64,000 nucleotides of DNA from Pirellulales bacterium (lineage in GTDB: Bacteria; Planctomycetota; Planctomycetia; Pirellulales; PALSA-1355). Positions within the stretch are counted from its first letter, which is position 1, and each line of letters starts with the position of its first letter. Position numbers and translations under genes: made by a program. The DNA is taken from NCBI GenBank assembly GCA_963733035.1, contig CAVTBU010000005.1:544001-608000 (forward strand), read 5' to 3'. Shown one piece after another: positions 5,253 through 45,610 of this stretch. The notes below the pieces were generated by a model. That model saw only the letters and a program-made list of their open reading frames with translations. It searched no databases and was not told the DNA's origin.

Positions 5253-7499
5253 ATGCACGAGTGGATGCATAGAATCGCACGGCTGCACACCGTGGTCGCT
5301 CTGCTTTCCGCGCTGTTCGGTTGCGGTTCGCTCCATGCAGCGGACCTGCCGGCCTTCAACAATGGCACGTGGCCGTTTTGCCCGCCGCGGCGGCCCGAGA
5401 TTCCCGCCGTCGAAAACGGGGCCTGGGTCGCCAATCCGATCGATGCGTTCATCCTGGCTAAGCTCGAGGGCAAAGGGCTGGAGCCCAACGGAAAGGCCGG
5501 CCGACTGGCACTGCTGCGTCGGCTCACGTTCGATTTGACTGGCTTGCCCCCGACACTGGCCGAACAACAAGCCTTTTTGGCCGACCGGCAAGAGGGCGCC
5601 TTCGAGCGCGTCGTTGATCGCTTGCTCGACTCGCCCCACTACGGCGAGCGCTGGGCTCAACACTGGCTCGACGTGGTTCGCTATGCCGAGACCGACGGTT
5701 TCAAGGCCGACGAATTTCGCCCCGATGCATACAAATATCGCGACTACGTGATCCGGGCTTTCAATGCCGATTTGCCCTATGACCGATTCATGCGTCAGCA
5801 GCTTGCCGGCGACGAACTCGAACCGAACAATCCCGATGCCGTGGTGGCCACGGGCCTCAACCGGCTGTACCCCGACGAATCGAACGCGGCCGACCTTCGT
5901 CAGCGTCGGCAGGAGATCCACGACAATCTGACCGAGACCACGGCCCTCACCTTCCTGGGGCTAACGGTCGGTTGCGCACAGTGCCACGATCATAAGTTCG
6001 ATCCAATCACGCAAGTCGACTATTTCCGTCTGCAAGCGTTCTTCGCCACGCTGTTGCCGCGAGACGATGCGCCGGTGGCCTCACGTGACGAAATCGAGCG
6101 CTACAACGAGGAGCATGCCGTCTGGGAGCAGGCGACCAAATCGATTCGTGCCGACATCGAAACGCTGCTCGACCCCAAGCGTCAGGCCATGCTCCGAAGT
6201 ACGATCGAAAAATTCGATCCGGACATTCGCGAGGCAATCGTCACGCCCGCCGAAGAGCGATCCTGCATGCAACAGCAAATTGCCTTCCAGGCGATGCGCT
6301 ATGTCTCGCCGAAGATGGCCGGCATCACCGGTGACAAACTGAAGGGAAATGAGCGAAAACGATACGACGAGTTGGCAACTCAATTGGCCAGTTACGATCG
6401 TCTGAAACCTCGGAAACTACCCACGGCAATGGCGGTCGTCGATGCGTCGGCCGAGGCCCCTCCGACACACCGCCTGGCGCTGGGCAACTATCGCAAACCG
6501 CAAGAACAGGTGGAGCCGGGATTCCCGGAATTCCTCGGGGCCAGCGAACCCGTCATCGAGGCTCCTCCCGTCGGCGAGGAATCCTCCGGTCGCCGCGCGG
6601 CACTGGCCAATTGGCTGTGCCGCGAGGACCATCCGCTAACCGCGCGGGTCATGGTCAATCGCATCTGGAAACATCACTTTGGCATAGGCATTGTCGCCAC
6701 GCCGAACGACTTCGGCGCCATGGGCGACCCGCCGACGCACCCCGACCTGCTCGACTGGCTGGCGGTGGAGTTTGTCGCACGAGGCTGGAGCATCAAGGCG
6801 ATGCATCGCCTGATCGTTACGTCCTCTACGTACCGCCAATTATCGCTCATCGACGCCGACAATCCCTTGCAGGCTGAAGCGATGCGGGTCGACGGCAGCA
6901 ATCGTCTATTGTGGCACGCCCGACGCCGCCGTTTAGAAGGCGAGGCGATGCGCGATGCGATGCTCGCGTTGTCCGGCGATTTGCAGCTGCGAATGTTTGG
7001 ACCGAGTGCCCGGCCGATTCTTCCGGCCGCCATTCAACCCGGTTCAAATTGGGGAACCGACAAATCGCCGCAAGATCGCAATCGCCGGTCGGTCTACATC
7101 TTCGCCAAACGCAATCTGAAGTTCCCGCTGCTGGAAATTTTTGACCTGCCCGATCTGCACAACAGTTGTCCGCAGCGGACGACGACCACTACCGCACCGC
7201 AGGCGCTCGCACTGCTGAACGGCGAATTTTCGCTCGAGCAGGCCCGGCACTGGAGTGAGCGACTGGCGGCCGAGCATCACAATGACACCGGTGCGATCGT
7301 CCGCGGCGCCTGGCAGACGGCATTCTCCCGCGACCCCACGGCGGAAGAGCGTGTGGCGGCCGAGGATTTTATACGCACGCAAACCGAGATCATCGCCGGT
7401 CGCGCTCAGCCAGGCGACATGACACCGCCACTGGCCTCCGCACTGGTCGACTTTTGTCACGCGATCTTCAATGCCAACGAGTTCCTCTACATCGACTAA
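5253..7499 (+). CDS. DUF1549/DUF1553 (PSCyt2/PSD1) domain protein
   Basis: NPIDAFI, LLRRLTFDLTGLPPT, YGERWAQHWLD, CAQCHDHKFDPI, ARVMVNRIW, PTHPDLLDWLA, PQALALLN. Confidence 0.93.
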   Translation: MHEWMHRIARLHTVVALLSALFGCGSLHAADLPAFNNGTWPFCPPRRPEIPAVENGAWVANPIDAFILAKLEGKGLEPNGKAGRLALLRRLTFDLTGLPPTLAEQQAFLADRQEGAFERVVDRLLDSPHYGERWAQHWLDVVRYAETDGFKADEFRPDAYKYRDYVIRAFNADLPYDRFMRQQLAGDELEPNNPDAVVATGLNRLYPDESNAADLRQRRQEIHDNLTETTALTFLGLTVGCAQCHDHKFDPITQVDYFRLQAFFATLLPRDDAPVASRDEIERYNEEHAVWEQATKSIRADIETLLDPKRQAMLRSTIEKFDPDIREAIVTPAEERSCMQQQIAFQAMRYVSPKMAGITGDKLKGNERKRYDELATQLASYDRLKPRKLPTAMAVVDASAEAPPTHRLALGNYRKPQEQVEPGFPEFLGASEPVIEAPPVGEESSGRRAALANWLCREDHPLTARVMVNRIWKHHFGIGIVATPNDFGAMGDPPTHPDLLDWLAVEFVARGWSIKAMHRLIVTSSTYRQLSLIDADNPLQAEAMRVDGSNRLLWHARRRRLEGEAMRDAMLALSGDLQLRMFGPSARPILPAAIQPGSNWGTDKSPQDRNRRSVYIFAKRNLKFPLLEIFDLPDLHNSCPQRTTTTTAPQALALLNGEFSLEQARHWSERLAAEHHNDTGAIVRGAWQTAFSRDPTAEERVAAEDFIRTQTEIIAGRAQPGDMTPPLASALVDFCHAIFNANEFLYID

Positions 7500-7501
7500 T
7501 C

Positions 7502-8975
7502 ATGCCGAATTACTCCCACTTCCTGGGTCCGAACGTACCGCACTTTGCCACACCCGTCTCGCGACGCGATTTTTTGGCACGGGCCGGAGCGGGCTTCGGA
7601 AGTGTGGCGCTGGCGTCCCTGCTGTCGCAACAGAGCGCGGCGGCGACCACGAACTTGTCGACCAGAGGAATTGCGGACACGCCCTTTAGCGGTCGGTCCC
7701 ACTTTCCGGCACGGGCGAAGAACGTTATCTGGTGTTTTCTCGACGGCGGCCCCAGCCACCTCGATTTGTTCGACCCCAAGCCCCAGCTCGACAAACTCGC
7801 CGGTAACCCCCTGCCCGACAGTTTCGACCGTCCGCTCACGGCGATGGGCAAAACGGCCTTCACGCCGCTGATGGGCACTAAGCGCAAATTTGCTCAGCAC
7901 GGCCAGTCGGGCATTTCGGTCAGCGATTGGCTGCCGGAGATTGCTACCTGTGCCGATGAGCTGGCCGTCATTCGCAGTTGCCATGCGGACGGTTTGAATC
8001 ATGTTGGCAGCGTCTGCCAAATGAACACCGGCAGCATTTTGGGCGGCCGCCCGTCGCTCGGTGCGTGGTGCCTGTACGGATTGGGGAGCGAAAGCCAGGA
8101 TCTGCCTGGCTTTGTCGTGCTGACCGACAACGCCAGCGACCCGCCCGGTGGGAATCGCAACTGGGGCACGGGCTTCATGCCGGCTACTTTCCAGGGAACC
8201 AAGTTTCGCGACGGCAAGACACCCATTCTGCACGTGGCCCCGCCATTTGACACCGACGCTGTCCGACAGCGGCGAAAGCTCGATTACATTCAAACCCTCA
8301 ATCGGCAGCACCGCGGAGAGCGAGCGGTCGACGACCGGCTCGAAGCTCGCATTGCCAGCTACGAACTCGCCTTCCGCATGCAGGCGGCCGCACCCGAAGC
8401 GGTGGACATTGCGGACGAAACCGCCGAAACCCGCGCCCTCTACGGCCTCGACGACAAAGCCACCCATAACAACGGCCGCAATTGCCTGCTCGCCCGCCGG
8501 CTTGTTGAGCGGGGCGTCCGCTGCGTGCAGATCTACATGGGCTCGGGCAGCAAATGGGACGCTCACACGGATATGGAAGGGAACCATTCGGCCCGCTGCC
8601 GTGAGAGCGACCGCCCGATTGCCGGATTGCTAAAGGACCTCAAGCGCCGCGGCATGCTCGATGAAACGCTCGTGGTTTGGGGGGGCGAATTCGGCCGCAC
8701 GCCGATGAGCGAGAGTGGCAACGGTCGCGATCACAACCCTTGGGGCTTCACCATCTGGATGGCCGGCGGTGGCATTAAGAGAGGTATTACTTACGGCGCG
8801 ACCGACGAAATCGGCCTGTATGCCACCGAGGGGAAGGCGCAGCGTGAACGATCTGCATGCCACGATTCTGCATCTTTTGGGCCTCGACCATGAACAACTC
8901 ACTCTGATGCACAACGGACGCGCCGAACGACTGACTGGCGTGGCGGGTCGTATCATTACCGAAATCCTGGCGTAG
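7502..8975 (+). CDS. DUF1501 domain protein (Tat signal); frameshift near 8840
   Basis: SRRDFL Tat motif, [36 protein letters not shown]; canonical C-terminus ([20 protein letters not shown]) lies in another frame. Confidence 0.9.
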
Positions 8976-9053: not shown

Positions 9054-10438
9054 ATGCAGCGGAACCACGCGACTTCGGCCAATCATCCGATCTTCGAGCA
9101 GTACCTTGCGAAAACACCCGGTTCGGCGCGGCTCTACCGACGTGCCGTGAACGTCTTTCCCGGCGGCGTGACGCACGACACGCGCTACTTGCAGCCGCAT
9201 CCCTTATACATCGATCGGGCCGCGGGGTCGCGCAAATGGGACGTCGACAATCACGAGTACGTCGACTACATCGGCGGTCACGGCGCTCTGCTATTGGGCC
9301 ACAATCACCCGCAAGTTATGGATGCCGTACGCGCACAGTTGGCCAAGGGAACACACTTCGGCGCGAGCCACGAACTCGAACTGCAGCTTGGCGAACAGAT
9401 CCAGAAAATGATCCCCTGCGCCGGCAAAGTCCGCTTTACCGGCTCGGGCACCGAAAGTACGTTGCTGGCCATTCGCCTGGCGCGGGCCTTCACCGGCAAA
9501 CAGAAAATCGTGCGCTTCGCAGGGCATTTCCACGGCTGGCACGATCAAGTGGCTTTCGCCGCCATGTCGCACTTCGACGGCTCGGTGCCTGCCGGCATTT
9601 TGCCGGGGGTCGTGGGCGAAGCGATCGTTTGTCAGCCCGGCGATGCCGCCGCGCTAGAGCGCATTCTTGATGCAAATGAAGACGTTGCCGCCGTGATCCT
9701 CGAACCGACCGGAGCCACGTTCGGCCTGGTCCCCTTGCCCGAAGGTTATCTCGCGCAAGTCCGCGAACTAACGGCCACCAAGGGCGTTTTGTTGATCTTC
9801 GACGAGGTTATTACCGGTTTTCGCGTTTCGCCCGGCGGCGCCCAGGCACACGCCGGTGTTACGCCGGATCTGGCTACGCTGGCCAAGATCGTCGCCGGCG
9901 GCTTCCCCGGCGGCGCCGTTGCCGGCCGCAAAGATGTGATGGACGTCATGACAATGCGCGAGGACCGCGCTTGGAACCTCGCGCACCGCGTGCCGCACCA
10001 GGGGACCTTCAACGCCAACCCGATCACCGCGGCGGCCGGGCTCGCCGCCCTGCAAGTCATCGCCGAGACCGACGCCATCGCCCGCGCGAACACCATCGCC
10101 GCGCAGCTCCGCAATCGGTTGAACGAAACGATTCGCCAGGTCGGTTCCAAATGGCTGGTCTATGGCGAGTACTCCGGTTTCCACATTTTTACCAACCCGC
10201 TCGACCGCCCGTTGTCCGTCGCGGACATCTACACGGGCAATGTCAGTATGGAGGAACTCAAGGGGGAACGCCCCCGTCGGTCATCCACCAACTGCGCTGC
10301 GGCCTGATTCTGGGCGGCGCCGATATCTTCCCCTGGCCCGGCGGCTGCGTTTCGGCGGTACACGACGAGCGCGACGTGGAGATTACCGCCAGCGCACTAC
10401 AATCTACACTTGAACAGCTCGAGTGGAAGAAAGGCTAG
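9054..10438 (+). CDS. Class III PLP-dependent aminotransferase (GSA-aminomutase-like); frameshift in G-run ~10262-10266
   Basis: WDVDNHEYVD, SGTESTLLAIRLAR, LIFDEVITGFR, TLAKIVAGGFP, GTFNANP; C-terminus (VSAVHDERDVE) in next frame. Confidence 0.85.
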
Positions 10439-10468: not shown

Positions 10469-12737
10469 TCACTCCCGGTCGAGTTCGGTCTGCAGCGCTC
10501 GCACCTGGTCAAGGTTCACGCCGACGGGCTCGTGTTCGAGCAGCCAATCAACGTCGTCGCGTGCGCGCTGGCGCTCGTTGAGCTGGTAGCGAACCATCGC
10601 TCGCAGCATGTGGTAGGGGCCATGTTCGGGCTCAACGGCGAGCATGGCATTCAGGTAGCGGTGCAGGGCCGCGGGATCACTGCGTGAAACGCTGAGCAGG
10701 TTTTGCAACATGCGGAAGATGATCGCCCGCTTGGTAGTCGGCTCAAAAAGCTTTGCGACCTGACTCTCGGTCAACTCCCCATCGGTTGCGTCGTTAACCC
10801 GCCGCTCGGCCTCCTTTCGGCTCACCTCCGCGGCGCCCTCGAATACGTCGATTAGTCGGGGGTCTCCTTCGGGGGGAACATACGCCACGATAAAGTGCCC
10901 GGGCAGACCCACGCCAACGACGTCCAAGCCGATCCTCCGCGCCAGTTCCAGATACACGACCGAAAGCGTGATGGGCAGCCCTTCGCGGTCGTCGAGCACT
11001 TCGTTCAGGTAGCTGTTGGCCCGATTGTAAAAGTCGCCGCGGCTGCCGTGAAAACCATTCTCCTTGAAAAGATAATTCTTTAGAGCGGCCAGTTTCGCCG
11101 CGTCATCCGCATCTTCTCCGAGCGACGCGTTAAGTTCCGCGGCCATCTCGTCGAGTTCCTGGCAGTAGGCATCCACGTCGACCTCCTCGTTATCGAGCCG
11201 GGCGACCAGCAACCCGGCACGGAACAAGTCGATCTTCGCTTCGTCAGCGGAAAGCGTGGCCAGCAGATCGTCGATCACGCGGCGCTCGGTGAGCTTCGAG
11301 CGCCAGTTCGCGAAGCCTCTCGGCCCGGCGATCGAGTTCGGAGGCCCGTCGCCGCAGCACCTTCGCAGCGCGAACCGGGTCGGTGGCCAGATCTTCAATG
11401 ACCGCCTCATCGAGAGAACCTTCGGTTGGCAACTTTTCAACAAGACCTACGATGCGCTCCGCTTCTTCCGGCCGCACTGTCGAGCGTGGCACTTCGGTGC
11501 CGACGTGAAACCCGCGAAATTCAGCCTCGGTGTCGCGAAACTTAACCAGACCGATTTTGCCAGGCTGCAGCGCCGAGTCGGCCATCGTGACAACTGGTTG
11601 GTCATTGACGAAACACTTGATCCTTCCGTCTTCGAGCCGCACGCGTAGGTTGTTCCACTTGCCCGCTGCATAGTGCTTGTTCGGTTGGCTATAGAGAATC
11701 TGCCAGGTTTGGATATCGGGGCCTGCGAATCGCGTCAGGCGCATCTGACCATTGGTCGGGTAGAAGCCGTAATGCCGGTTCTCGCCGTCGGAGCAAAATG
11801 CCAACCCCGCCGCGCCAGACTCGTCGTCCAGCTTCACGTCGACGGTTATCTCGAAAGGTCGCTCGGGTGGAATTGCCGTCGACAGGCAGAGCGAACGCCC
11901 TCCAAACCCATCGCCGAGCCCATCGACCAGGATGCGACCGGCACGTTGCCGCCAGTGGGCCCCGAACACTGGTTGCCACTCGCGGGCATCGAGCGCCCCG
12001 ATGGTTCGCCAGCGCGACATGGCGATCGGATTGGGCTTCTCGAGTAGCGGCTTGAGCAGGTTAATCGTGAGGGCAAACCCAAGGTTGGGCGTCACGAGCG
12101 ACTTCATCGTCATCACGCCCTGCACGCGCCCCTGGCGATCGATGAGTGGTCCACCGCTGTTGCCAGGTTCAATCGGAATGGCCAGTTGGATCATCGGCCG
12201 GCCGTCCATTTCGCGCATGCCGCTAACCAACCCGCTAACGACACTGTGCTTGAGTCCGCGCGGATTGCCCAATGCAATAACGCTTTGCCCCTGTTTGAGC
12301 TGATCGGAATCACCCAGCTCGAGCGGCACCAAGTCCATGGCGTCGATCTTCAGCACGGCAAGATCCAGTTCTCGATTCGACGCGTGAACTTCGGTCACCT
12401 CGACCTGTCGGCCGCTGGCCAATTGCACGCGGATGTCGCGACCATCGCCGATGACGTGGTAGTTCGTCACAACGTGACCATCGGGCGAAATGATGAACCC
12501 GGCTCCCATCCCCTCTCGTCGACCGTCGCGACCGGCGGAAGTGATGACGACGACCGACTCGCGCACCCGCTCGGTCAGTTCCGCAATACTCAACTTGGAA
12601 TCGTCCGCCGCGTCGGCATTCGATTCGCGAGACTCTGTCGCGGCCGCGGAGGGCTCTTCGGCGACGGCGAATGTCCGCCAGAGGACCGATGCAAAGAGCG
12701 TCAACACTAAAAGCACAAGGCCGGATCGCATCATCAT
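10469..12737 (-). CDS. Secreted trypsin-like (S1C) protease + DUF1080-like domain + SirB1/transglutaminase-like/TPR domain; frameshift ~11290
   Basis: Signal peptide; triad motifs VTNYHV, DLAVL, GNSGGPL; DESGAAGL/GKIGL beta-domain; SYLNEVLDDREGLPITLSVVY..GVGLPGHF in the adjacent frame. Confidence 0.8.
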
Positions 12738-12927
12738 TTGCTCCGCGTCTTTGCCAAGACGGACCGGGGCGGTGCATCGCCCATAGCCTTGATGATACCC
12801 GGAATGCGGCCCCCGCGGCGAGTACCGCGTCGCGATTTAGCCTCCAACTGGCACCGCGTTTTAGTGCCAAACCAAGGCCTACGCGAAGCGTGGTGTGACC
12901 CGCCGAGAAGATCGGGCGATTTGCGAG

Positions 12928-18331: not shown

Positions 18332-20659
18332 CTACCGCACCTGCAAGCCGCTTTCGGCAACGTCACTTTCTTCGGTACTACCAGCGCGGTCCACTTTGCA
18401 GCCGCGGGTGAAGAATCGCCCCAACGGACCTGCCAGAATGACGGGCGTCAGCGCCAGGTCGGCCACGAGGCCAAACCCCAGCAGCGTGAACATCAACAGG
18501 CCGAACCGCCGGGTCGGCATGAAGCTGCTCAGCGCAAAGGTGAGCAGCCCCAGCGACACGATGGCAGTGCTCTGATAGATTGCGCCGGCCGAGTGCTCGT
18601 AGGCCATGACGACGGCATCCTTGCGTTTCAGCCCCATGCGTGTGGCGCGGCGAAACCAGTTGGCAAAGTGGACGGTGTCGTCCACGCATACCCCCATCGC
18701 CACGCTGGCGGTCATCATCGTACCGATGTCGAGTGCAATACCCAGCCAACTCATCAGCCCAAACACCACGGTCATCGGAAACACGTTGGGCAACATCGTC
18801 AGCAGGCCGGCTCGCACGTCGCGAAACATAATGCTCATCACGGCGGCAATCATGGCGAACGCGCCGAAGAAGCTCTCGGTCAGGCCATTGAGCAGCGCGC
18901 GCTCGGCCATGTAAACGACCGGCGTCATCCCGGTATACGTCACACCGTCAAGCCCCTTGACGCCCTGCGAACGTTGGCGATCGAGCGCCGGCTCGACATG
19001 ATGTCGAATGTCGTCGATGAACGCACCGTAGTCGATGTCCGCCAAGGCCGCCACGCGCAGACTGATGCGCCACCACTCCTGGCCCGTCTTTTTGTCGACG
19101 GTCAGATAGCCTTCCTTCACGAAGTCCTCGCGATGGGCGTCGAGCCGCTTGGTGAGCACGTCGCGCCGCAACAGCCCACGCACGCTGCCGCTCCGACTTG
19201 GCCTCAGATCGGGCGCGAACGTGACGGCGGACATCGTGCCGCCAACAGCGGGAATCTCCTGAGCGGCCTGTTGTATTCTTTCGACGGTCCGCATTCGCTC
19301 CAGCATCGTTTGGTCGTTGGCCTTTTCATCGAACCGCACGACGAGTTCCATCGGCACCAGCGGGCCCAGGTTGGCCTCCAGCCAGCGGTAGTCGTGTATA
19401 ATTTTCGCGTCCGGCGAAAACAGGCTCATCAGGTTGATTGTCGTTTTGGCCTGGTAGAGCCCCGACCCACAACCAACCATCAGCCCCAAAAACACCAACC
19501 ACACCAGCCGCGGTCGGCCGACGACAAAACTCCCGAGGGCGCGCATTTGCCGGCGATGCTTCGGATCGAGCAGGCTGTCTTCCTCATCCACGAGCCCCTC
19601 GGGCAGCTTGGGGGGCCAAATTGTCAAGGCGGACGGCAAGTACAGAAACATAAACCCGACCGTCGCCATCACACCCAGGGCCGTATAGAAGCCGAAGGCC
19701 TTGATCGGCACCAGTTCGCTGATATACAGCGAGATCAAGCCCATGGCCGTCGTGCCGGACGATAGCGTACAAGGGAGCCAGGCCGCCGTCACGGCCCGCT
19801 CCGGCGCACCGCGCATGCCGCCGTGCAAACAAACGTGTCGATAATAGTTGATCAAATGCATGGCCGTGGCCAGCCCCGCGGTGTATACCACCGCCGGCAT
19901 CGTCAACAGCACGGAGCTCATTTGGCCGCCGAGCACCCAGACCAGAGCCAGGCAGATACCCGCGCTGTAGACACCGCCCACCAACACCATGACGGTCAGC
20001 CGCAGGTCGCGGATATACCACCAGGCAAGCGACAGGCCGACGGCACCGCACAGGCCCATCAGACGCATCAACATCCGCTCGCCTTCCATGTCGATCGTCA
20101 CATTGTCGACCGGCGGTCCGCCCATCCGCAGATTCTGCTCGGAGATTCCCAACTGCTCTGCGTCGTGGTAGACCTGGGCGATCGATTCCCGCAAGTGCTC
20201 GCGTCCCAATGCCGAAAGCGTCAAGGCCACGCAGGTCTGTTTGCCGTTCGGTCCGATGAGCGTCCCCTTCAGCCGTTTCACCGCTTCGCTCTGCGAGAGG
20301 CTCGTCGGCGGGTTCATCAAGCGTTCGAGCACGCTTTCGCCGGTCACCGCGCTTTGGAAGTAGTGCGGTGTTTTCGGATCGCTGGGCATGACCAGGTGGT
20401 CGGCTAGTTCGCCGACGCGCGGGTTGTCGAGGGTGCACCCCTCCCAACTCACCAGCACGAACGTCTCATCGCCAAAGTGCCGCTGGAACTCCTGATAGTC
20501 ACGCGTGGCCTGAAACGTATCCGGGAGCCACTCCTTCACGTCGTTCTTGTTGGTCTTGAGTGCGAGTATGGCCGCCCACACGGTAAATGGCAGCATCACC
20601 ACTACCAAGGCGATGATCGGCCAACTGAACTGCTCGTAAAATGACTTTCTGGCTGCCAT
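18332..20659 (-). CDS. MMPL/RND family transporter
   Basis: Two MMPL repeats; PCTLSSGTTAMG, GVCVDDTVHF, ADLALTP. Confidence 0.88.
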   Translation of the reverse strand: MAARKSFYEQFSWPIIALVVVMLPFTVWAAILALKTNKNDVKEWLPDTFQATRDYQEFQRHFGDETFVLVSWEGCTLDNPRVGELADHLVMPSDPKTPHYFQSAVTGESVLERLMNPPTSLSQSEAVKRLKGTLIGPNGKQTCVALTLSALGREHLRESIAQVYHDAEQLGISEQNLRMGGPPVDNVTIDMEGERMLMRLMGLCGAVGLSLAWWYIRDLRLTVMVLVGGVYSAGICLALVWVLGGQMSSVLLTMPAVVYTAGLATAMHLINYYRHVCLHGGMRGAPERAVTAAWLPCTLSSGTTAMGLISLYISELVPIKAFGFYTALGVMATVGFMFLYLPSALTIWPPKLPEGLVDEEDSLLDPKHRRQMRALGSFVVGRPRLVWLVFLGLMVGCGSGLYQAKTTINLMSLFSPDAKIIHDYRWLEANLGPLVPMELVVRFDEKANDQTMLERMRTVERIQQAAQEIPAVGGTMSAVTFAPDLRPSRSGSVRGLLRRDVLTKRLDAHREDFVKEGYLTVDKKTGQEWWRISLRVAALADIDYGAFIDDIRHHVEPALDRQRSQGVKGLDGVTYTGMTPVVYMAERALLNGLTESFFGAFAMIAAVMSIMFRDVRAGLLTMLPNVFPMTVVFGLMSWLGIALDIGTMMTASVAMGVCVDDTVHFANWFRRATRMGLKRKDAVVMAYEHSAGAIYQSTAIVSLGLLTFALSSFMPTRRFGLLMFTLLGFGLVADLALTPVILAGPLGRFFTRGCKVDRAGSTEESDVAESGLQVR

Positions 20660-21062
20660 TTCGCGCTTCAAAAAAACCGTGCGTTCAGAATTCAACAACT
20701 GCCGGGCGGCCGTGGCCGGCTCTCACGGTCGCCTTGATCGCCCGGCCAAACCACCTCGATCGCAGGCGTCCGAGCGGCTCGCGACGGGCGAGTGTCCGGC
20801 CATCGTACGGAGCAAAACCCGCGCCGCCCGCGCTAACACCATCCTCGCTGAAGCCCCGGCCTGCAAGCCCTGGTGGGCGGAAAAGTCGCGGCAATTGGCC
20901 CCGTTGAGTCGACAAACGGCGGATCGTGCGGTATTGGTGGTACATTTGGCGCAGCTCTCCGCGCGGGAGAACCGATCGGCCCGTAGTGGCACGCAAGCTG
21001 CGACCGAATGAGTGAGCACGGCGCATTGCACAGCAACCCAGCATTTCAGACCGGAGCCGTCC

Positions 21063-21431
21063 ATGGCCAAGAAAGCAAAAGCCGCCACGTCCAAACCGAA
21101 AAAATCTGCGACAACTGGCAAGTCCGCTAGCAAGCCCGCGGCAAAGGCGGCCGCTCCCAAGATAGCGCGGAGCAAAACCGCGCCCGCCAAACGCAAGGCT
21201 TCCCATTCGACCACACGAACCCCGGCACCAGCGGTCGTCACCAAGAAAGTCGTCGCGGAAGTTACCGTCCATCAACCCTTGACGGAACGGTTTGGCAGCA
21301 TCGACGAAGCCAAAGACGCCACGCTTGACGCCCTGCTCGAAATCATCGAAGCGGCCGAGGAGCGCCTCCGCGACGTCAAACGTGTCCAAACGTTCGAGGA
21401 ACTCGAACCGCTGGCAAACGGCCGTCTCTAG
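21063..21431 (+). CDS. Hypothetical protein with Lys/Ala-rich histone H1-like N-terminus
   Basis: GGAG RBS; MAKKAKAATSKPKKSATTGKSASKPAAKAAAPK.. followed by an acidic helical domain. Confidence 0.7.
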   Translation: MAKKAKAATSKPKKSATTGKSASKPAAKAAAPKIARSKTAPAKRKASHSTTRTPAPAVVTKKVVAEVTVHQPLTERFGSIDEAKDATLDALLEIIEAAEERLRDVKRVQTFEELEPLANGRL

Positions 21432-21448
21432 GCGCCAATCTGGGCACT

Positions 21449-22273
21449 TCAAAAACGAGCTGCTTCGCGGTCATGACGCCAGCGATAGAGCGTGATCCCC
21501 CAAGAAACCGCGATGTAGTACAGCGGGTAGAGTAGCGACACGAGAGCCAATTGAAACGTCTGCGCCGCGGAGTGGGCATCGGCCGGGGGATCCGTCGTCG
21601 GCATGGCCCACAGTACCCACAGCAGCACGACGACCCACACACCTCCCAGGAAGTTGGTCAGGCGGCTGAGCACGGCACCCCGGCTGGGGTAGAGATAGTA
21701 GCTCGGTACGAACGTCAGTCCGGCCAAAAGCAGAATCAGCACCGCTGCCAGCCAGCTCGGCATCCCCAATACATACAAGTAGAACGCCACGATATTCCAG
21801 TAGGATGGAAAACCCACGAAGTAGCCGTCGGGCGTCTTGGCCGGCACCTGGCAAAATCCGTACGCGCTGGCCACGAGCGCCACGACCAGCACCCATTCCA
21901 TGTTGTGTGGCAGCAACTCCGCCCGCCACACCAGCAACAGCGGTAGCGAAGTGAAGGTTAGAAAGTCGATGATGTCGTCGAGCTTGGCGCCGTCAAAATT
22001 GGGGAGCAATTCCTTTACGCGCAGCCGCCGCGCGAGCGAGCCGTCGGTCGAATCAACCAGACAGGCGACGAGCATCAAGGCAAACGCCCAGCGAAACGCC
22101 TCGGGCGTTCCCTCGACGATGCAAACCGCCATTCCCGCGGCCAGCAAGAGCCCGGCTGCGGTGAACGCGTGGGCAAACCAAGCGATCCAGGCCGGCCAAG
22201 GGGGCTGCTGGGCGTGAGACTCGGCGGCCCCACGCTCAACGCCCTGTTCGAGTTCGATTTCGCGACGAATCAT
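21449..22273 (-). CDS. pcs: Phosphatidylcholine synthase (CDP-alcohol phosphatidyltransferase)
   Basis: HAFTAAG, DSTDGSLARRLRVKELLPNFDGAKLDDIIDFLTF, KTPDGYFVGFPSYWN: Pcs-type spacing and motifs. Confidence 0.85.
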   Translation of the reverse strand: MIRREIELEQGVERGAAESHAQQPPWPAWIAWFAHAFTAAGLLLAAGMAVCIVEGTPEAFRWAFALMLVACLVDSTDGSLARRLRVKELLPNFDGAKLDDIIDFLTFTSLPLLLVWRAELLPHNMEWVLVVALVASAYGFCQVPAKTPDGYFVGFPSYWNIVAFYLYVLGMPSWLAAVLILLLAGLTFVPSYYLYPSRGAVLSRLTNFLGGVWVVVLLWVLWAMPTTDPPADAHSAAQTFQLALVSLLYPLYYIAVSWGITLYRWRHDREAARF

Positions 22274-22291
22274 AAGTCCATTGCGTTTTGA

Positions 22292-23866
22292 TTAGACGTC
22301 TTCAGCCGGTTCGGGAAGCGGTCGCGGCGGATCCCAGCGAGCGGTCAGCCTCGAGACAACCGGCAATAGAATCATACCTGACGCAGCCGACAGCGTGCGC
22401 ATGGGAAACAACGTGGCCTCTCCACCAGAGTCGGCCCAGGCCGCTCGGCCACCGGGAAGCACGCCTGCGAACCACTCGGTGTAGGGAATGAACTGCGGCA
22501 CGGCCAGAATTGGTTCGCCACCGCCCAGTCGTAGCACAAGTGCCACGACAAACGCCACGATCGAACCCGTGCGGTTGGCGCGCGGATCGTAAAGCGCGTA
22601 CACCAATTGGGGAAACAACAGCACGAACACCAGATCGCTGGTGAAGAACCACAACTTTTGCACGCTCTGCACGTGCAATGCAAGCACGGCCGCCAGAGCC
22701 CCCAGTACTAGAATTGATAGCCGAATCACTCGCCGCATATTGAGTGCGGAGATTTTCGGCGTTACCAGTGCACGAAAGAAATTCCAACTGAGCATCGAGC
22801 CGGCCGAGAGTACCGAGGCGCGTAAAGCTGGACGTTACCGCTCCTACGATCGCGGTGAGGCCCAAAATGGCGATGAACGGCGGCAGTGCATACTGAAACA
22901 ACAACGGCAGCGCCATCGACGGAGAGGCTGCCAACTGCTCGCGTGCCGCGGCCGTCCAATCGGGATAGGCAAACGCCGCCAGCCCCAGCAGCAATGGTGG
23001 AATCGTCAGCAACATCGTCAACAGGCCCGCGACGATCGAATGCCATTGAGCCTTGACCGGAGTTTGACAGGCCTGAATGCGTTGGAAGTAGCAGTTCCAC
23101 GGAATGCCACCCAGCACAAGCATGATCGACAAGTCCCACCACCCGACGATCCGCGGGGCGGTCCAATAGCCGTCGGCTTCGGTTGGCGGCAACCACCGGG
23201 CCGCCGATCCCTTGGCGGCAACGTACTCGCTCCAGCAGGACTCAAGCCCACCGGACGCGCCAGCGCCAGGGGCAACGCCAACATGAGCCCAATCGGAATC
23301 AGCATGAACTGCACGGAATCGGTATAGCCCACGCTCCACATGCCGCCCAACAGCGTGTAGCCAGTCACCACCGCGGCGGAGACAATGATCGCCGTGGTCA
23401 GATTGATTCCCAGCATCACGCCAAACGTAGCGCCAATGGCCACCAGCAGTTCAGCGCTCCAAAACACTTCGCCGAACATGGCCGGCAGCGACAACACGGC
23501 CGACCAATGTTTACCAAAGCGCGCCGCGAACGGATCGACAAGCGTAACGAACTGTAACTGCCGCATCCGCCGCGCGAAGAAAAAGCCGCCTAGGATCAGA
23601 CTCAACCCGAAACAAACGCCCCCCTGCCAGCCCGAGGCGATGCTTGTCATTACCCCTTCGGCCGTGCCGAGCAGATAACCACCGTCGATCCAGGTGGCGG
23701 CCATCGTGACCGTGGCCATCCAGAATGGCATGGCACGGCCCGCAACCAGCAGTTCGGAAGCCGTGCCCAACTTGAGTCGCTTCGAAGCACGCCAACCGAC
23801 GACGAAGAAAACCAGATACAGCGTGGCCACGGCCGCTATGCCCGCCCAATTGGCCTCGTGCATCAT
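22292..23866 (-). CDS. Sodium:solute symporter, CHT1/SLC5A7 (high-affinity choline transporter)-like; frameshifts ~23258 and ~22820
   Basis: TMAATWIDGGYLLGTAE, SLILGGFFFARRMR..VTLVDPF, GEVFW, LGGIPWNCYFQR, LWFFTSDLVFVLLFPQL across three frames. Confidence 0.85.
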
Positions 23867-24930
23867 GTCACTCCGCCGCTAATCGGCCGCAGCCGCCGCC
23901 GGCCCAGCGACCGACGCTTCGATGATCTCGGCGCCGCCGGCGCTGTCGGGGCAGGCCTCGCGAGCAACGTTCCGCGAACCCGAGCCATTAAGCCTGGCGA
24001 GCCAAGATACAGCGCGAGCAGGTGACGCTTGCCGACCTGGCAACAGGCATCAAGTTGACAAACTTTGTAGGCCTCCACGCCCCAGGCGCCGGACCATAGG
24101 CCAGTGTACCCCAATGCCTCGGCGCACGACCGCCGTCCATCAATAATGTGATACCGCTTCAGCAGTCGGTCACAACTGTTGTTGACGAGCAGCAGGCCTG
24201 ACGTCTGCGACATGGCCTGACCGTGAAAGCGTTCCGGCAGCAGCCAGTCGTTGTTAATCGCAGCCGCGAACAATACGACTTGCGCTGCTTCGCGCCGAGC
24301 ATGCACCCGCTCATCGAGCACATGACCACACAATGTTCCACCACCCAACAAATGGAGTGCTCCGGTCGCGGCCCGCGCACCAAAACTGTGCGCCCACAGA
24401 CTGAGGGGTACTTGCGGATCCAAATGGTCGAGAAACCAGGCCATGTAGTAGCCCGTGACGTTCGTGCGATTGGCCTTCACGCGGGCATCATTGACGAGTC
24501 CTCGCACCGAATCGCTGGGCCACGACCAGATGATAAACCGCAACGGCTCGTCGCCCGCGCAGCGAATGAGCGCACGATAGGCCGACCACCCTTTCGTAAA
24601 TGCATCGTCCGCCGGAATGCGATTGCCGTGCACGAAAACGGTCGTCGACATGTGCGGGTCTTCCGCCGCAAGTAGTTCCTGTAAACTCGAACGTGTCCAC
24701 TGACGCTGGCAATCGTAGCGCCAGTATTGCAGTCGCTCGGCGTCGCAGGCGACGTTGCATCCCAAAGTGCGATCGCTCACCAGCCAAAGCTGGTCCTGCA
24801 TGCGGACGGAGCAGCAACACGCGGTGGAACTGGCCCAGGCCACTTGCGCGCCAATGCAGACTACCATCCAGGCGAAAACGGCTTTCAAAACCAAACGAGT
24901 TGCAACTTGCCGTTGCGGTGCGACATCCAT
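23863..24930 (-). CDS. Secreted alpha/beta-hydrolase (DUF900-like)
   Basis: Signal peptide; FVHGN, WSWPS, nucleophile elbow AHSFG; true stop may be ~23879 if an indel lies near 23930. Confidence 0.7.
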   Translation of the reverse strand: MDVAPQRQVATRLVLKAVFAWMVVCIGAQVAWASSTACCCSVRMQDQLWLVSDRTLGCNVACDAERLQYWRYDCQRQWTRSSLQELLAAEDPHMSTTVFVHGNRIPADDAFTKGWSAYRALIRCAGDEPLRFIIWSWPSDSVRGLVNDARVKANRTNVTGYYMAWFLDHLDPQVPLSLWAHSFGARAATGALHLLGGGTLCGHVLDERVHARREAAQVVLFAAAINNDWLLPERFHGQAMSQTSGLLLVNNSCDRLLKRYHIIDGRRSCAEALGYTGLWSGAWGVEAYKVCQLDACCQVGKRHLLALYLGSPGLMARVRGTLLARPAPTAPAAPRSSKRRSLGRRRLRPISGGVT

Positions 24931-25174
24931 GGTGGCGTTCGGTACCGGGCGTGAAGATTGTGTCGATCAGCACGTTTGCGCGGTCTACCCAAGCCGCTGG
25001 CTAGGGCGCCCGTCACGTAGAATGTAGCATTTTTTCAACGTGGGTGACGTCAAATCTTGACCCGTTGAGAAAAGTCAACACGGCGCGCTTGCCCTTCGAT
25101 CCGCGCGGGGTAGAGTTGCATGGCCCCGCGATTTGTCGCGGTGGAATTTACCTTTCGTGTTGGAGCTATGAATC

Positions 25175-25432
25175 ATGAAGAGGCTTCTGATTCTCTCGGC
25201 CGTAGTGCTGGCGGCCGGCGCGAGTGGTTGTAAGAATTGCTCGCCCTGCGGTGGCACGACGGCCTATCGACCGTTTTCGCCCACGCCGGCGTGCTGCACT
25301 CCGACCACGCAGTCGTACGGAACGCCGGTGTACTCCACCCCTGGAGCAATCGCGGCGCCGACCTTGTCCGATCCGCAGGCAGTGCCGATGCAGACATACC
25401 CCGGCCCCGAGGCGTACACGCCGGCCAATTAG
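25175..25432 (+). CDS. Small Cys/Pro-rich lipoprotein
   Basis: GGAG RBS; MKR + hydrophobic core + lipobox ASGC. Confidence 0.75.
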   Translation: MKRLLILSAVVLAAGASGCKNCSPCGGTTAYRPFSPTPACCTPTTQSYGTPVYSTPGAIAAPTLSDPQAVPMQTYPGPEAYTPAN

Positions 25433-25494
25433 CGTGCATTTTCGCTCGACGTCATCACCTCGGGCGAGCATTAACCTGAAACTCTTGAGACTAG

Positions 25495-25566
25495 GTCCAT
25501 CGCGAGTGAAGCCGCCCGGCGTACCAGCCGCCTGCGGCGGTCACTCGCGATGGACATTTTTGTTTC
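25495..25566 (+). terminator. Long-stem intrinsic terminator
   Basis: 15-bp perfect inverted repeat GTCCATCGCGAGTGA (25495-25509)/TCACTCGCGATGGAC (25541-25555) followed by ATTTTTGTTT. Confidence 0.65.
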
Positions 25567-25771
25567 CCCAGTGGCGTGCCCGGCTGTCGGCGCCCGAAAC
25601 ACGGTGAAACAATCGTTTTTTTCCCAATCTTCCGCAAACGGCCAGACACGATGCGCCATTTTGCTCGGCAGTGACTAGAATCGAAGAATACTGGCTCCTT
25701 CGCCCCGTCGTCGGGCCAGGCGCGTGTCTGACAACTTGCACGGACGCCCCTTCTACATCTGGGTTGACGCC

Positions 25772-26731
25772 GTGCGTACGCTCCTGATTTTTTTGCTGTT
25801 GATATCGTCCGCGCAACATGTTTGCGCACAATTCAAAGACGAGAACACCGACGACGGCAAAGGCCCCCTGTTGGGAGCCGAAGCCACCAGCCGCCTCAAA
25901 GTTGGCATCACCGTCAAAGCCACCGGCGGTACCATCTTTCGCGGCAACGCGGCCATCCCCATTCCGATGGATTGGCCCGAGCAACAAGTCAAGGTCATCG
26001 ACGAAGACGTCTCGGCCACCGTCAGAAACATGACGTACCGCGACGTCTCCGGCGGCGGTGGACTACGGCAGATGATCGTGCAGATTCCTCAGCTGCCAGG
26101 CGGCCAGGAAGCTCACGCGCTGGTGACGTTCGAAATCACACGCCGCGCGCAAGCGCCCCCAGCCGACACGTCCATCTATAAAATCCCCAAGCGGGTCGAC
26201 CGTTCGATCATGTTGAACCTCGGCCCCAGCCCCTTCATCGAAAGCCGGCATCCCAAGATCATCGCGGCCGCACGAGAAGCTGTCTCCGACGACCAAGACG
26301 CCTGGCATCAGGTCGAGGCGATGTACGAATGGGCTCGTAGCCACATTCAATACAAGGAAGGCAGCGTGAAGGGCGCCGCCCGCGCTCTGGCCGACGGCGA
26401 AGGTTACACGGATGACATTTGCTCGCTTTTCATCGCCATGTGCCGCGTGCAGAAAATTCCGGCCCGCACCGTGTTCGTCAAGAACCATTGCTACGCGGAG
26501 TTCTACTTGGAAGACGACGAGGGCCAGGGCCACTGGTTCCCCTGCCAGCCGGCCGGCCCCCGTGAATTCGGCGGGCTAGACGACGTGCGGCCGATCTTGC
26601 AAAAGGGGGACAATTTCAAGAACCCCGACAACTCACGCGAGCGGTTGCGGTACCTTCGCGAGGATTTCCACGCCGCGGGCCGGGGTGGCAGCCCCGAGGT
26701 GAAGTTCGTTTCGGAACCGGTGGCCAACTGA
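25772..26731 (+). CDS. Transglutaminase-like domain protein (secreted)
   Basis: LGPSPFIES, SLFIAMCRVQKIPARTV, HCYAEFY, RPILQKGDNF; start uncertain. Confidence 0.8.
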   Translation: MRTLLIFLLLISSAQHVCAQFKDENTDDGKGPLLGAEATSRLKVGITVKATGGTIFRGNAAIPIPMDWPEQQVKVIDEDVSATVRNMTYRDVSGGGGLRQMIVQIPQLPGGQEAHALVTFEITRRAQAPPADTSIYKIPKRVDRSIMLNLGPSPFIESRHPKIIAAAREAVSDDQDAWHQVEAMYEWARSHIQYKEGSVKGAARALADGEGYTDDICSLFIAMCRVQKIPARTVFVKNHCYAEFYLEDDEGQGHWFPCQPAGPREFGGLDDVRPILQKGDNFKNPDNSRERLRYLREDFHAAGRGGSPEVKFVSEPVAN

Positions 26732-43599: not shown

Positions 43600-44544
43600 C
43601 TACTCAACGCGAACTTCGATCTTCGTGCGAAACGATTCGCCCGGTGCCAGAATCAACAAATGTGGATCGATGCCCTGCTCGCGCAGCGTGAAGGCATCGG
43701 GAATCGTGGTATAAGGCTCGATACACACCGCTTCTCGGTGCGGCGGATTGTAGACCACGCACGCCGTGAACTGGTCGTCAAAGTCCTGTGACACCGTGCG
43801 GCCGCTGTGGGGATCGTGAATCGTTGTCACGAGACGGTGATCGTTGCCCGTCAGCTTTCCGAACACATTATCGAGCTTCATCTCGCCGACCTGCATGCCG
43901 CTCGGCAGTTTTTCAGTAGCCGCGGTCGTGTCGGTCTTGCCGGTCGGCAATAGTTCCTTGAGTTCCCAACAAGTACCCACGGGAATTTTTACGACGCAAT
44001 CGTCCGCGCTGTTGCCCGCTAGCGGCAAGCGAAAATACGGGTGCGTGCCGAAGCCAAACGGCAGCGGCTTATCGTCGGGATTATCGATAACAAATTCGCT
44101 CGTAAGCGTATTGCCGGCGATTTGATAAGTCGCGGTGATTCGAAAATCGGCCGGCCAACGTTTGAGCAGGCTCTCGTCGTCGACCGAGGCATGAAACTGA
44201 CCCACAACGCGATCTTGCGTCTGTTCTTTTACGCGCCACGGACGATTGAACACAAAACCATGGATGGCATTGCCGATGCCATCTCCCTCGTCCAGTTCGT
44301 ACTGCTTGTCCTGAAAATGAAAGGTCGTACCCCGAATCCTGCCGGCGAACGGGAACAACAGCGGAATGCCGCTGCCGGTCGGCTTCGCGGTGCCGTCGGT
44401 AAAATCTGGTGCCGACCACAGCACCTCCATGGGCCCCGATGAACTGGCGACCGAAAAGCCGTAACAATTGAAGCCGACACCCGGCAGGATCTTGGCCTTT
44501 GAGCCGTAAACCGGGTCCGTAATCGTAACAATCTCCAGCGACAT
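43600..44544 (-). CDS. Aldose 1-epimerase family protein
   Basis: GIPLLFPFAGRI, AIHG, GTHPYF, LDNVF, CIEPYT. Confidence 0.9.
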   Translation of the reverse strand: MSLEIVTITDPVYGSKAKILPGVGFNCYGFSVASSSGPMEVLWSAPDFTDGTAKPTGSGIPLLFPFAGRIRGTTFHFQDKQYELDEGDGIGNAIHGFVFNRPWRVKEQTQDRVVGQFHASVDDESLLKRWPADFRITATYQIAGNTLTSEFVIDNPDDKPLPFGFGTHPYFRLPLAGNSADDCVVKIPVGTCWELKELLPTGKTDTTAATEKLPSGMQVGEMKLDNVFGKLTGNDHRLVTTIHDPHSGRTVSQDFDDQFTACVVYNPPHREAVCIEPYTTIPDAFTLREQGIDPHLLILAPGESFRTKIEVRVE

Positions 44545-45610
44545 CAAGGCGACGACCTCATCGTTGAATGCGGCGATAGATGGAATGTCCCCCTATTGAA
44601 ACGGAAGTTTCCAGGGACGCAAGTGGCAGCGGCTTGCTCCAATACAGCCGCGGAATCAAGAATTGCTGTTCGCCTCGGTGCCAGCACGCAATTCTCCAGC
44701 CGCACACGTGTGCCGACCATCAGCAGAAATAGGGTGCCTAGCACGGCTGTTGGCGCCACGCCTGCCGTCGGGTGGGTTCGCTGAGAGCCAGCGCCGCGAG
44801 CACGTGCATCAACAACATCGCCAGAACGACCGACGAAAGAAAAAGCAACGACGCGGCGGCATCACCACCCAACAGCGGCCCAATTGCCGTCTCGGGCATC
44901 GCGAGCGCCACCCACAGCCCGGTCGGAAACTGCAAGACGGCAGCCCCCAACGCCAGCCGCGCCCCCAATTTTACAAGACGCTGGCGCATCTCGACGGACT
45001 CGGGAGGGACCGTTGCCATTGTGCGCAGCGCCAACCACACCATAGCCATTCCGGTAACCGCCACGGCGGCCAACCAGACATGCGCGACGCGCGACAGGAC
45101 CTCGCCGTCGACGAGCAAGCGACGGAACTCGGCGCGATCCAAAGGACCGCCGGACAAAGACGGACGCGTGCCGACGAGCGAGATGATGGTAAACAGCGCC
45201 GGAAAGTGAACCATCAAATTGCTGGCTGCCGCCACGGCCAACAGGCGATGCCACCCCCGGCCTTTTTGCCAGCGCCGCCACAGCCCGACATAGGCACCGA
45301 GACAGAGGAACGAAAACAGCAATTCCGCGCCCGCAAACCATAGACGGTCGCGCGGAATCGCCGCGATCGCGCGAAAGTAGCGATCGTCGCTAAGATAGCG
45401 CAACAGAAGTAACGCGCCCCCTAGTAGCCCGCCAATGGCTAGCGCAACAACAGACCACAGCGCAAGGGTCCGACCGAATTCGCCGAGTTGGTCCGCCTTC
45501 TCACGCTTGCTGCGCCAGTCGAGCCAGGCGCTAGCGAGTGGACCGACCATGGCCAAATCCACCAAGATCATGTGTGCGGCCAAGAGCACCGTCGTGACGA
45601 CCTCGATCAC
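44544..45610 (-). CDS. Hypothetical multi-pass membrane protein; probable frameshift ~44750
   Basis: ~7-8 TM with intramembrane His residues; last TM (TAVLGTLFLLMVG) continues in another frame to a stop overlapping the epimerase start. Confidence 0.65.

Follow-up and report, generated by a model that had tools for sequence, protein, structure and literature searches.

Three genes lie co-oriented on the minus strand at positions 21449-24930 of the stretch of Pirellulales DNA analysed here (contig CAVTBU010000005.1, 64,000 nucleotides (nt); hereafter the window). In 5′ to 3′ order they encode an α/β-hydrolase, a symporter of the SSS family resembling the high-affinity choline transporter CHT1 (SLC5A7; CHT below) and a putative phosphatidylcholine synthase (Pcs). 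A first-pass annotation of this DNA had proposed a choline-scavenging operon in which a secreted esterase releases choline, the CHT1-like symporter imports it and Pcs converts it to phosphatidylcholine (PC). The order and tight spacing described there are borne out, as the TGA that ends the hydrolase frame (23865-23863) overlaps the ATG of the transporter (23866-23864) and 18 nt precede pcs; the transporter, taken there as a single frame, is broken twice in the assembly (Table 1). From the comparisons below we consider it probable that CHT and Pcs constitute a two-gene module leading from choline to PC, that the hydrolase is a bystander, and that both frame changes are artefacts.

Table 1. Features of the cluster, with positions in the window
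Feature	Position	Strand	Basis
α/β-hydrolase, DUF900-like, with N-terminal hydrophobic helix	23863..24930	-	355-aa open reading frame (ORF), WAHSFGAR elbow
CHT-like, predicted Na+/choline symporter, N-terminal piece	23263..23866	-	~aa 1-200 of ~523; Pfam SSF
Frame change 1: one base missing versus all orthologues; beside GCGC	23259..23262	-	DNA alignment
CHT-like symporter, middle piece, read in another frame	22824..23258	-	Orthologue aa 203-348; TIGR00813
Frame change 2: one base extra versus all orthologues, first frame restored; beside GCGC	22822..22823	-	
CHT-like symporter, C-terminal piece and stop codon	22292..22821	-	Orthologue aa 346-523
18-nt spacer, transporter stop to pcs ATG	22274..22291	-	Sequence
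Putative phosphatidylcholine synthase (Pcs), divergent, 274 aa	21449..22273	-	PF01066 and five Pcs NCBIfam models
Transglutaminase-core protein, divergent from the hydrolase (context only)	25724..26731	+	

Identity of the transporter and the synthase

The N-terminal piece of the transporter is matched by PF00474 (SSF; E = 2.5e-14) and TIGR00813 (E = 6.8e-14), and the middle piece by TIGR00813 (E = 1.9e-07). Closer identity was judged on the intact orthologue L020:3232-4800 (523 aa), which is 75-88% identical to the window pieces. This orthologue aligns over residues 3-517 with PDB entry 9rws, titled ‘SLC5A7 high affinity choline transporter’ (E = 1.7e-124), and matches human CHT1 (8j74) at E = 2.6e-75, whereas the next family, SGLT1, is reached only at 1.2e-15; over its full length it is closer to the characterised CHTs than to other SSS members. 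We take 9rws to be sfCHT, since the residue numbers in the alignment agree with those of the sfCHT paper. In proteoliposomes, sfCHT exhibits Na+-dependent [3H]choline uptake that is abolished by hemicholinium-3 (bioRxiv 10.1101/2025.09.30.678764; PMC13220886). Four of the five aromatic residues of the central site are retained (W99/Y126/W176/W298/W445 of sfCHT align with W58/F85/W135/W256/W405 of the orthologue), the fifth being a conservative Tyr-to-Phe change. The Na+ site A97/T98/V100/Q226 aligns with A56/T57/I59/Q185, and the cytoplasmic site R84/Q303/R304/S307 with R43/Q261/R262/A265. Across 9 orthologues the aligned residues of the central and Na+ sites do not vary, and the window pieces have them too. 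The assignment of the transporter as CHT/SLC5A7-type, ‘CHT1-like’ in the first-pass annotation, is well founded as a prediction from sequence, and from it we infer choline as the probable substrate and Na+ as the probable coupling ion.

The 274-aa protein encoded downstream is matched by the CDP-alcohol phosphatidyltransferase domain PF01066 (CDP-OH_P_transf) at E = 1.9e-07 and 32.1 bits, above the cut-off of 22. Its top five NCBIfam matches are all Pcs equivalogs (E = 1.1e-44 to 9e-31) and the next family is archaetidylserine synthase (E = 4.2e-08), in agreement with the earlier naming of this gene as a phosphatidylcholine synthase. In the 274-aa protein the signature motif reads D-ST-DG-SL-AR-(RLRVKELLPNFD)-G-AKL-D-DII-D, i.e. 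DSTDGSLAR-x12-GAKLDDIID with a 12-residue spacer. This is the spacing of the Pcs motif printed as DX2DGX2ARX12GX3GX3D, the spacer of the Pss motif being 8 (PMC3972451). At the second G of the printed Pcs motif the 274-aa protein carries D. The general motif of the CDP-alcohol family has D at this same position. No solved relatives of Pcs were found by sequence profile. We have filed the protein as a putative separate and divergent Pcs lineage, with PC as its predicted product. A Pcs homologue of another planctomycete (G185:C2:471404-472132) sits in a 538-aa open frame and may be fused to a second domain.

Linkage of the transporter gene and pcs

Conservation was followed across the order in 41 genomes, this one among them, of which 24 belong to this family. 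CHT is present in 13 of the 24 family genomes; the whole set gives 15 hits, of which 14 are orthologues and one (G035) is a paralogue-level match at 36%. pcs is present in 14 of the 24 family genomes (the 13 CHT holders and G019) and in 16/41 overall. The order hydrolase-CHT-pcs is found in all 12 family loci that were fetched, and in the thirteenth CHT genome (G017) the genes lie on separate short contigs. A wider scan with the CHT alignment, at one genome per species, retained 80 loci including the 12 of the family; because these loci come from relatives that are not independent of one another, the counts exceed the true number of separate observations. In 61 of the 80 loci pcs follows CHT on the same strand, and the same holds for 56 of the 73 that have at least 1.5 kb of downstream sequence. 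The distance is within ~300 nt in 51 loci and 0.9-2.4 kb in 10, where HNH, PIN or cytochrome genes are inserted between the two. Beyond the 18 close Pirellulales loci, pcs is downstream in 43/62, and by record title these are mostly Acidobacteriota (Blastocatellia, Vicinamibacterales, Bryobacterales) together with other Planctomycetota.

In a FastTree phylogeny of 78 CHT proteins (L068 and L102 were left out for their broken ORFs), a branch with support of 100 separates the 25 Planctomycetota rows from all others, and the pcs-linked state (59/78 rows) occurs on both sides of the Planctomycetota/Acidobacteriota split, with at least 8-9 changes needed. Retention of the two genes together across this split argues most strongly that the pair is functional. 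Among 200 other Planctomycetota, sampled evenly, CHT was found in 2 genomes and pcs in 3, with pcs fragments in a further one (G166); both CHT holders have pcs, adjacent to CHT in G144. In total, pcs is present in each of the 15 other Planctomycetota genomes that have this CHT. The gene-neighbourhood survey that the first-pass annotation had called for thus finds the linkage kept throughout the fetched family loci and in most loci overall, in two phyla, and the CHT-pcs module is real and conserved. A recent interphylum transfer of the pair was considered and set aside, as the sample gives no sign of it and the Planctomycetota rows all fall on one side of the fully supported branch.

Beside CHT-pcs in other lineages, Pfam matches of 55 neighbouring ORFs point to no recurrent third gene and to no choline-releasing enzyme; the families are varied and include TgpA transglutaminases, S9/M16 peptidases, ABC permeases, TauE, acyl-CoA dehydrogenases and HNH/PIN insertions. 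The Blastocatellia insertions between CHT and pcs are small genes of mobile type, for an HNH endonuclease in L079, L119 and L129 and for a PIN-domain toxin in L081 and L090, and a RoxA-like, cytochrome c-like gene lies between the two on the opposite strand in L089, L090 and L127. Six bins titled Heliomicrobium, Heliobacteriaceae or Clostridia (L081, L101, L109, L111, L113, L119) have CHT proteins nested in Blastocatellia at very short distances, and these titles are probably taxonomic mislabels.

On the downstream side of the cluster, a 139-aa Lys/Ala-rich protein (21012-21431, plus strand) is encoded convergently to pcs and gives a weak CT392-family match (E = 0.00093); relatives keep this protein adjoining pcs or a dipeptidase gene. 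Directly downstream of the cluster lies the gene for a 788-aa MMPL/HAE3-type transporter of the resistance-nodulation-division (RND) superfamily (18332-20698, minus strand). Such a gene adjoins pcs in G019 and G007 and not in the same-genus genomes G001-G003, and a role of its product in lipid export is only a guess. A scan of 20900-25800 returned 2 promoter-like and 6 terminator-like elements, not in excess of shuffled sequence (means of 1.0 and 5.7), and none of them falls in the intergenic spacers.

The interrupted frame and the upstream hydrolase

Read as open frames, the transporter does not form a single frame of ~520 aa in the assembly and falls instead into three pieces at ~23866-23288 (frame A), ~23258-22821 (a second frame) and ~22828-22292 (frame A again). 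The intact orthologue matches the window at aa 1-192 in frame +1 (87.5% identity), aa 203-348 in frame +3 (78.8%) and aa 346-523 in frame +1 (75.3%), and none of the three pieces contains a stop in its own frame. When aligned as DNA with 10 intact orthologues of 516-540 aa, the window shows 1 nt missing near 23259-23262 and 1 nt extra near 22822-22823 in 10/10 comparisons. Contigs of run X5, which are 90-95% (~93%) identical to the window, have an extra C behind 23259 and one base fewer at 22822, and both indel sites are therefore intact in that population.

The frequency of such breaks in the assembly was estimated from 159 long ORFs in 400 kb of the same-genus genome G003, 115 of which have an orthologue here at 60% identity or more. 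Of these 115 genes, 25 (~22%) are frame-split, i.e. they match in more than one frame, which corresponds to ~1 break per 7 kb of coding sequence. Twenty breaks with abutting halves were placed by DNA alignment, at ~75% identity and hence approximately. GCGC lies within 2 nt of 17 of the 20 breaks and within 5 nt of all 20, as compared with 6.8% and 11.1% of 20,000 random positions on the same contig (binomial P ~1e-17), and GCGC also stands beside both transporter indels. Taken together, the proportion of split genes, the motif at 17/20 breaks and its presence at both transporter sites lead us to read the indels as artefacts: the two 1-nt changes most likely arose by error at GCGC during basecalling or assembly, with the transporter intact in the organism. 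The motif is probably methylated, which would give a systematic single-base error in a long-read assembly. Among related loci, split matches occur only in four very-long-contig assemblies (L055, L066, L068, L070), with 0/14 in the others. Single-base errors at GCGC bear on every other finding from this genome, and any call of ‘pseudogene’ or ‘split gene’ on it needs to be made with them in mind.

Five of the 25 frame-split genes lie inside the window (7472-8972, 9075-10426, 10472-12773, 43603-45601 and 61943-64000). In the low-complexity tail of the hydrolase gene, X5 (~93% identical) has one extra G at window position 23929, again beside GCGC, and the C-terminus of the hydrolase may accordingly be out of frame as assembled. 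Whichever of the three frames is followed after 23929, the hydrolase ORF stops no more than 18 nt from the transporter start.

The hydrolase itself is matched by PF05990 (DUF900) at 16.2 bits (E = 0.0072), under the gathering score of 20.5, and of the 120 relatives listed, 3 have a precomputed match to PF05990 and most come from Pirellulales under the name ‘hypothetical protein’ or ‘alpha/beta hydrolase’. An alignment of 47 relatives shows no variation at S182 (in HSFG), D254 or H303, which would constitute the catalytic triad. The AF2 model (pLDDT 91, pTM 0.83) predicts an N-terminal helix at residues 6-34 followed by an α/β-hydrolase core, which resembles lipases, thioesterases and phospholipase A1 (VIA Z 12-13.6). 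The best structural match is phospholipase A1 4qnn (Z 13.6, root-mean-square deviation 3.4, 208 residues aligned; Foldseek, VIA); this and the other matches (MpaH, TesA, PPT2, lipoprotein lipase and Bacillus LipA) differ among themselves by ~1.5 Z at most, and the resemblance is generic. The only solved relatives retrieved by sequence profile are spurious (E = 0.017 or worse).

The distribution of the hydrolase differs markedly from that of the pair. Orthologues are found in 23/24 family genomes and 39/41 genomes of the order, versus 16/41 for pcs, and the hydrolase occurs within 5 kb of CHT in 0/62 loci from outside the family. In 11 loci the hydrolase does not stand beside pcs, and 4 of these (L134, L137, L141, L143) keep the divergent arrangement with the transglutaminase-core gene that is seen in the window; this gene is the neighbour of the hydrolase with the wider conservation, and its product may be the real functional partner of the hydrolase. 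In G019 (L139, 6700-6860) the context is that of the window except that CHT is missing, and hydrolase and pcs join in a stop-start overlap (TGATG). This overlap makes it likely that the hydrolase is co-transcribed with the pair in this family; it is not enough to make the hydrolase a choline esterase, and the hydrolase is probably a conserved neighbour and not part of the choline module. Of the route proposed earlier, then, the symporter and Pcs are upheld by linkage in 61/80 loci and two phyla, while the choline-releasing esterase finds no support in the distribution and generic fold of the hydrolase, and a three-gene operon is not seen beyond one lineage. An algal source of choline, also suggested, is likewise unsupported, as the runs and records of relatives are soil, groundwater and freshwater-sediment metagenomes.

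Alternative readings and known systems

In the mechanism that we propose, the CHT (SLC5A7)-type symporter would import free choline coupled to Na+, and Pcs, encoded 18 nt downstream, would condense it with CDP-diacylglycerol to give PC. These two genes would allow a soil Pirellulales bacterium to make PC from external choline. The exported hydrolase would be a core gene of the order that in this family chances to stand upstream of the pair; it may be transcribed together with CHT and pcs and would have no tie to choline. The pair most likely does what had been proposed for it, to judge from sequence relationships and gene order. No BCCT/BetT-family gene was found in this genome (92% complete), in keeping with the suggestion that an SSS symporter takes the place of BetT/BCCT here, and no BetA was found in it either.

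Several observations weigh against this proposal. The Pcs protein scores below all five curated cut-offs, the best being 152.9 bits versus 440 (NF045886). Tyr126 of sfCHT is Phe here and Ser307 is Ala, and an alanine variant at Ser307 lowers uptake by sfCHT (bioRxiv 10.1101/2025.09.30.678764). In 19 of the 80 CHT loci the flank retrieved contains no pcs; in 17 of these, downstream sequence extends for 1.5 kb or more. In G019 pcs is present where this CHT is missing, and no CHT was found elsewhere in that genome (96% complete) with the N-terminal query, so that each of the two genes can exist without the other. Choline could also enter through an ABC system, one binding protein of the OpuAC type being encoded in the present genome, and contigs at least 99% identical to the window (runs X1-X3) cover neither indel site. 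The two substitutions and the low Pcs scores would also fit a linked pair that acts on another quaternary amine or amino alcohol, serves osmoprotection or catabolism, or makes a different phospholipid; the source of sfCHT, Salimicrobium flavidum, is a halophile in which osmoprotection is the likely use (bioRxiv 10.1101/2025.09.30.678764). We regard this as highly unlikely, given that the Na+ site and all but one of the aromatic residues are kept, that the Pcs-specific 12-residue spacer is present, that BetA was not found, and that osmoprotection poorly explains why the gene is tightly paired in two phyla with one for a Pcs-type enzyme. A genuine, recently formed transporter pseudogene in this strain, with Pcs fed by another importer as in G019, is quite unlikely, too. 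Two indels in one 1.6-kb gene exceed the ~0.2 predicted from the assembly-wide rate, and the persistence of pcs in G019, the OpuAC-type system as a possible other importer and the coverage gap in the near-identical contigs are all compatible with such decay. Set against these are the GCGC signature that both sites have in common with 17/20 other breaks, the three pieces being free of stops or other damage at 75-88% identity to orthologues, and the intact sites of the X5 population; moreover, 22% of long genes being broken would be implausible for a free-living bacterium.

The three-gene reading, in which choline set free from external esters or lipids by the exported hydrolase is taken up through the symporter and used by Pcs, draws on the co-oriented, overlapping or close arrangement of the three genes in 18/18 close-family loci and on the TGATG overlap that persists in G019 in spite of the missing CHT. 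It also draws on the hydrolase itself, with its invariant Ser/Asp/His residues, predicted N-terminal hydrophobic helix and nearest structures that include phospholipase A1 and lipases. We nevertheless consider it unlikely: the hydrolase is near-universal in the order and is kept in genomes without pcs, where 4/11 loci adjoin the divergent transglutaminase-like gene; no CHT locus outside the family carries it within 5 kb; its structural matches are generic, with Z scores that differ by no more than ~1.5; and lipase or phospholipase A action would, by established enzymology, free a fatty acid and not choline. A broader version, in which a core hydrolase was drawn into the CHT-pcs transcript in this family for scavenging of external choline esters or lipids and the original job of the bacterial relatives of CHT1, the neuronal choline transporter of animals, was the supply of lipid head groups, is likewise unlikely. 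The two-gene module, with the hydrolase as neighbour, remains our preferred reading.

A cultured member of the Pirellulales contains mainly dimethyl-phosphatidylethanolamine with minor PC (PMC6995999), which fits the rarity of pcs in the Planctomycetota sample and suggests that a methylation route to PC would be the commoner one in this phylum. No published description of the CHT-pcs pairing was found in the literature searched, which did not extend to reviews behind subscription (Geiger et al. 2013, for example). The Pcs pathway itself is known; what appears to be new is a CHT-type symporter, encoded directly upstream, as the putative supplier of choline to Pcs. Bacterial CHT1 homologues have only recently been shown to carry choline, and the paper gives no physiological context for them (PMC13220886). 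The pair in Planctomycetota and Acidobacteriota gives these homologues a concrete job, and from it one would predict PC membranes that depend on choline in soil bacteria that are abundant and for the most part uncultured.

Among known systems, the hydrolase has the α/β-hydrolase fold and Ser nucleophile elbow in common with DUF900 (PF05990), a family that is itself without known function, although the match is weak and under the Pfam gathering score. The 274-aa protein finds its best matches in the bacterial Pcs models NF045884-NF045888 (Agrobacterium, Borrelia, Legionella, Pseudomonas and Bradyrhizobium types), with which it has the domain and the 12-residue spacer in common; its scores lie well under every curated cut-off. 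The transporter orthologue is similar over its full length to sfCHT (PDB 9rws/9rwt; Sci Adv 2026, PMC13220886) and human CHT1/SLC5A7 (8j74), and has the GGIPW and TATW unwound-helix motifs, with the Na+-site residues and the Q-R gate of TM8 retained. It differs from sfCHT in the Y126-to-F and S307-to-A changes, and the window copy is frame-broken as assembled. The host here is a soil planctomycete, whereas that of sfCHT is a halophilic Firmicute; the gene here is paired with pcs, whereas the sfCHT paper (PMC13220886) makes no mention of an operon, Planctomycetota or Acidobacteriota. In Brucella, Agrobacterium and Sinorhizobium, the ABC system ChoXWV supplies choline to Pcs, with the choline route still unknown in at least one Brucella species (PMC8371380). 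The logic of ChoXWV and Pcs, in which high-affinity import of choline feeds Pcs together with CDP-diacylglycerol (PMC8371380; PMC3972451), would be the same as that proposed here; ChoXWV is a binding-protein-dependent ABC system, whereas the importer here would be a secondary SSS/CHT-type Na+ symporter whose gene lies directly upstream of pcs.

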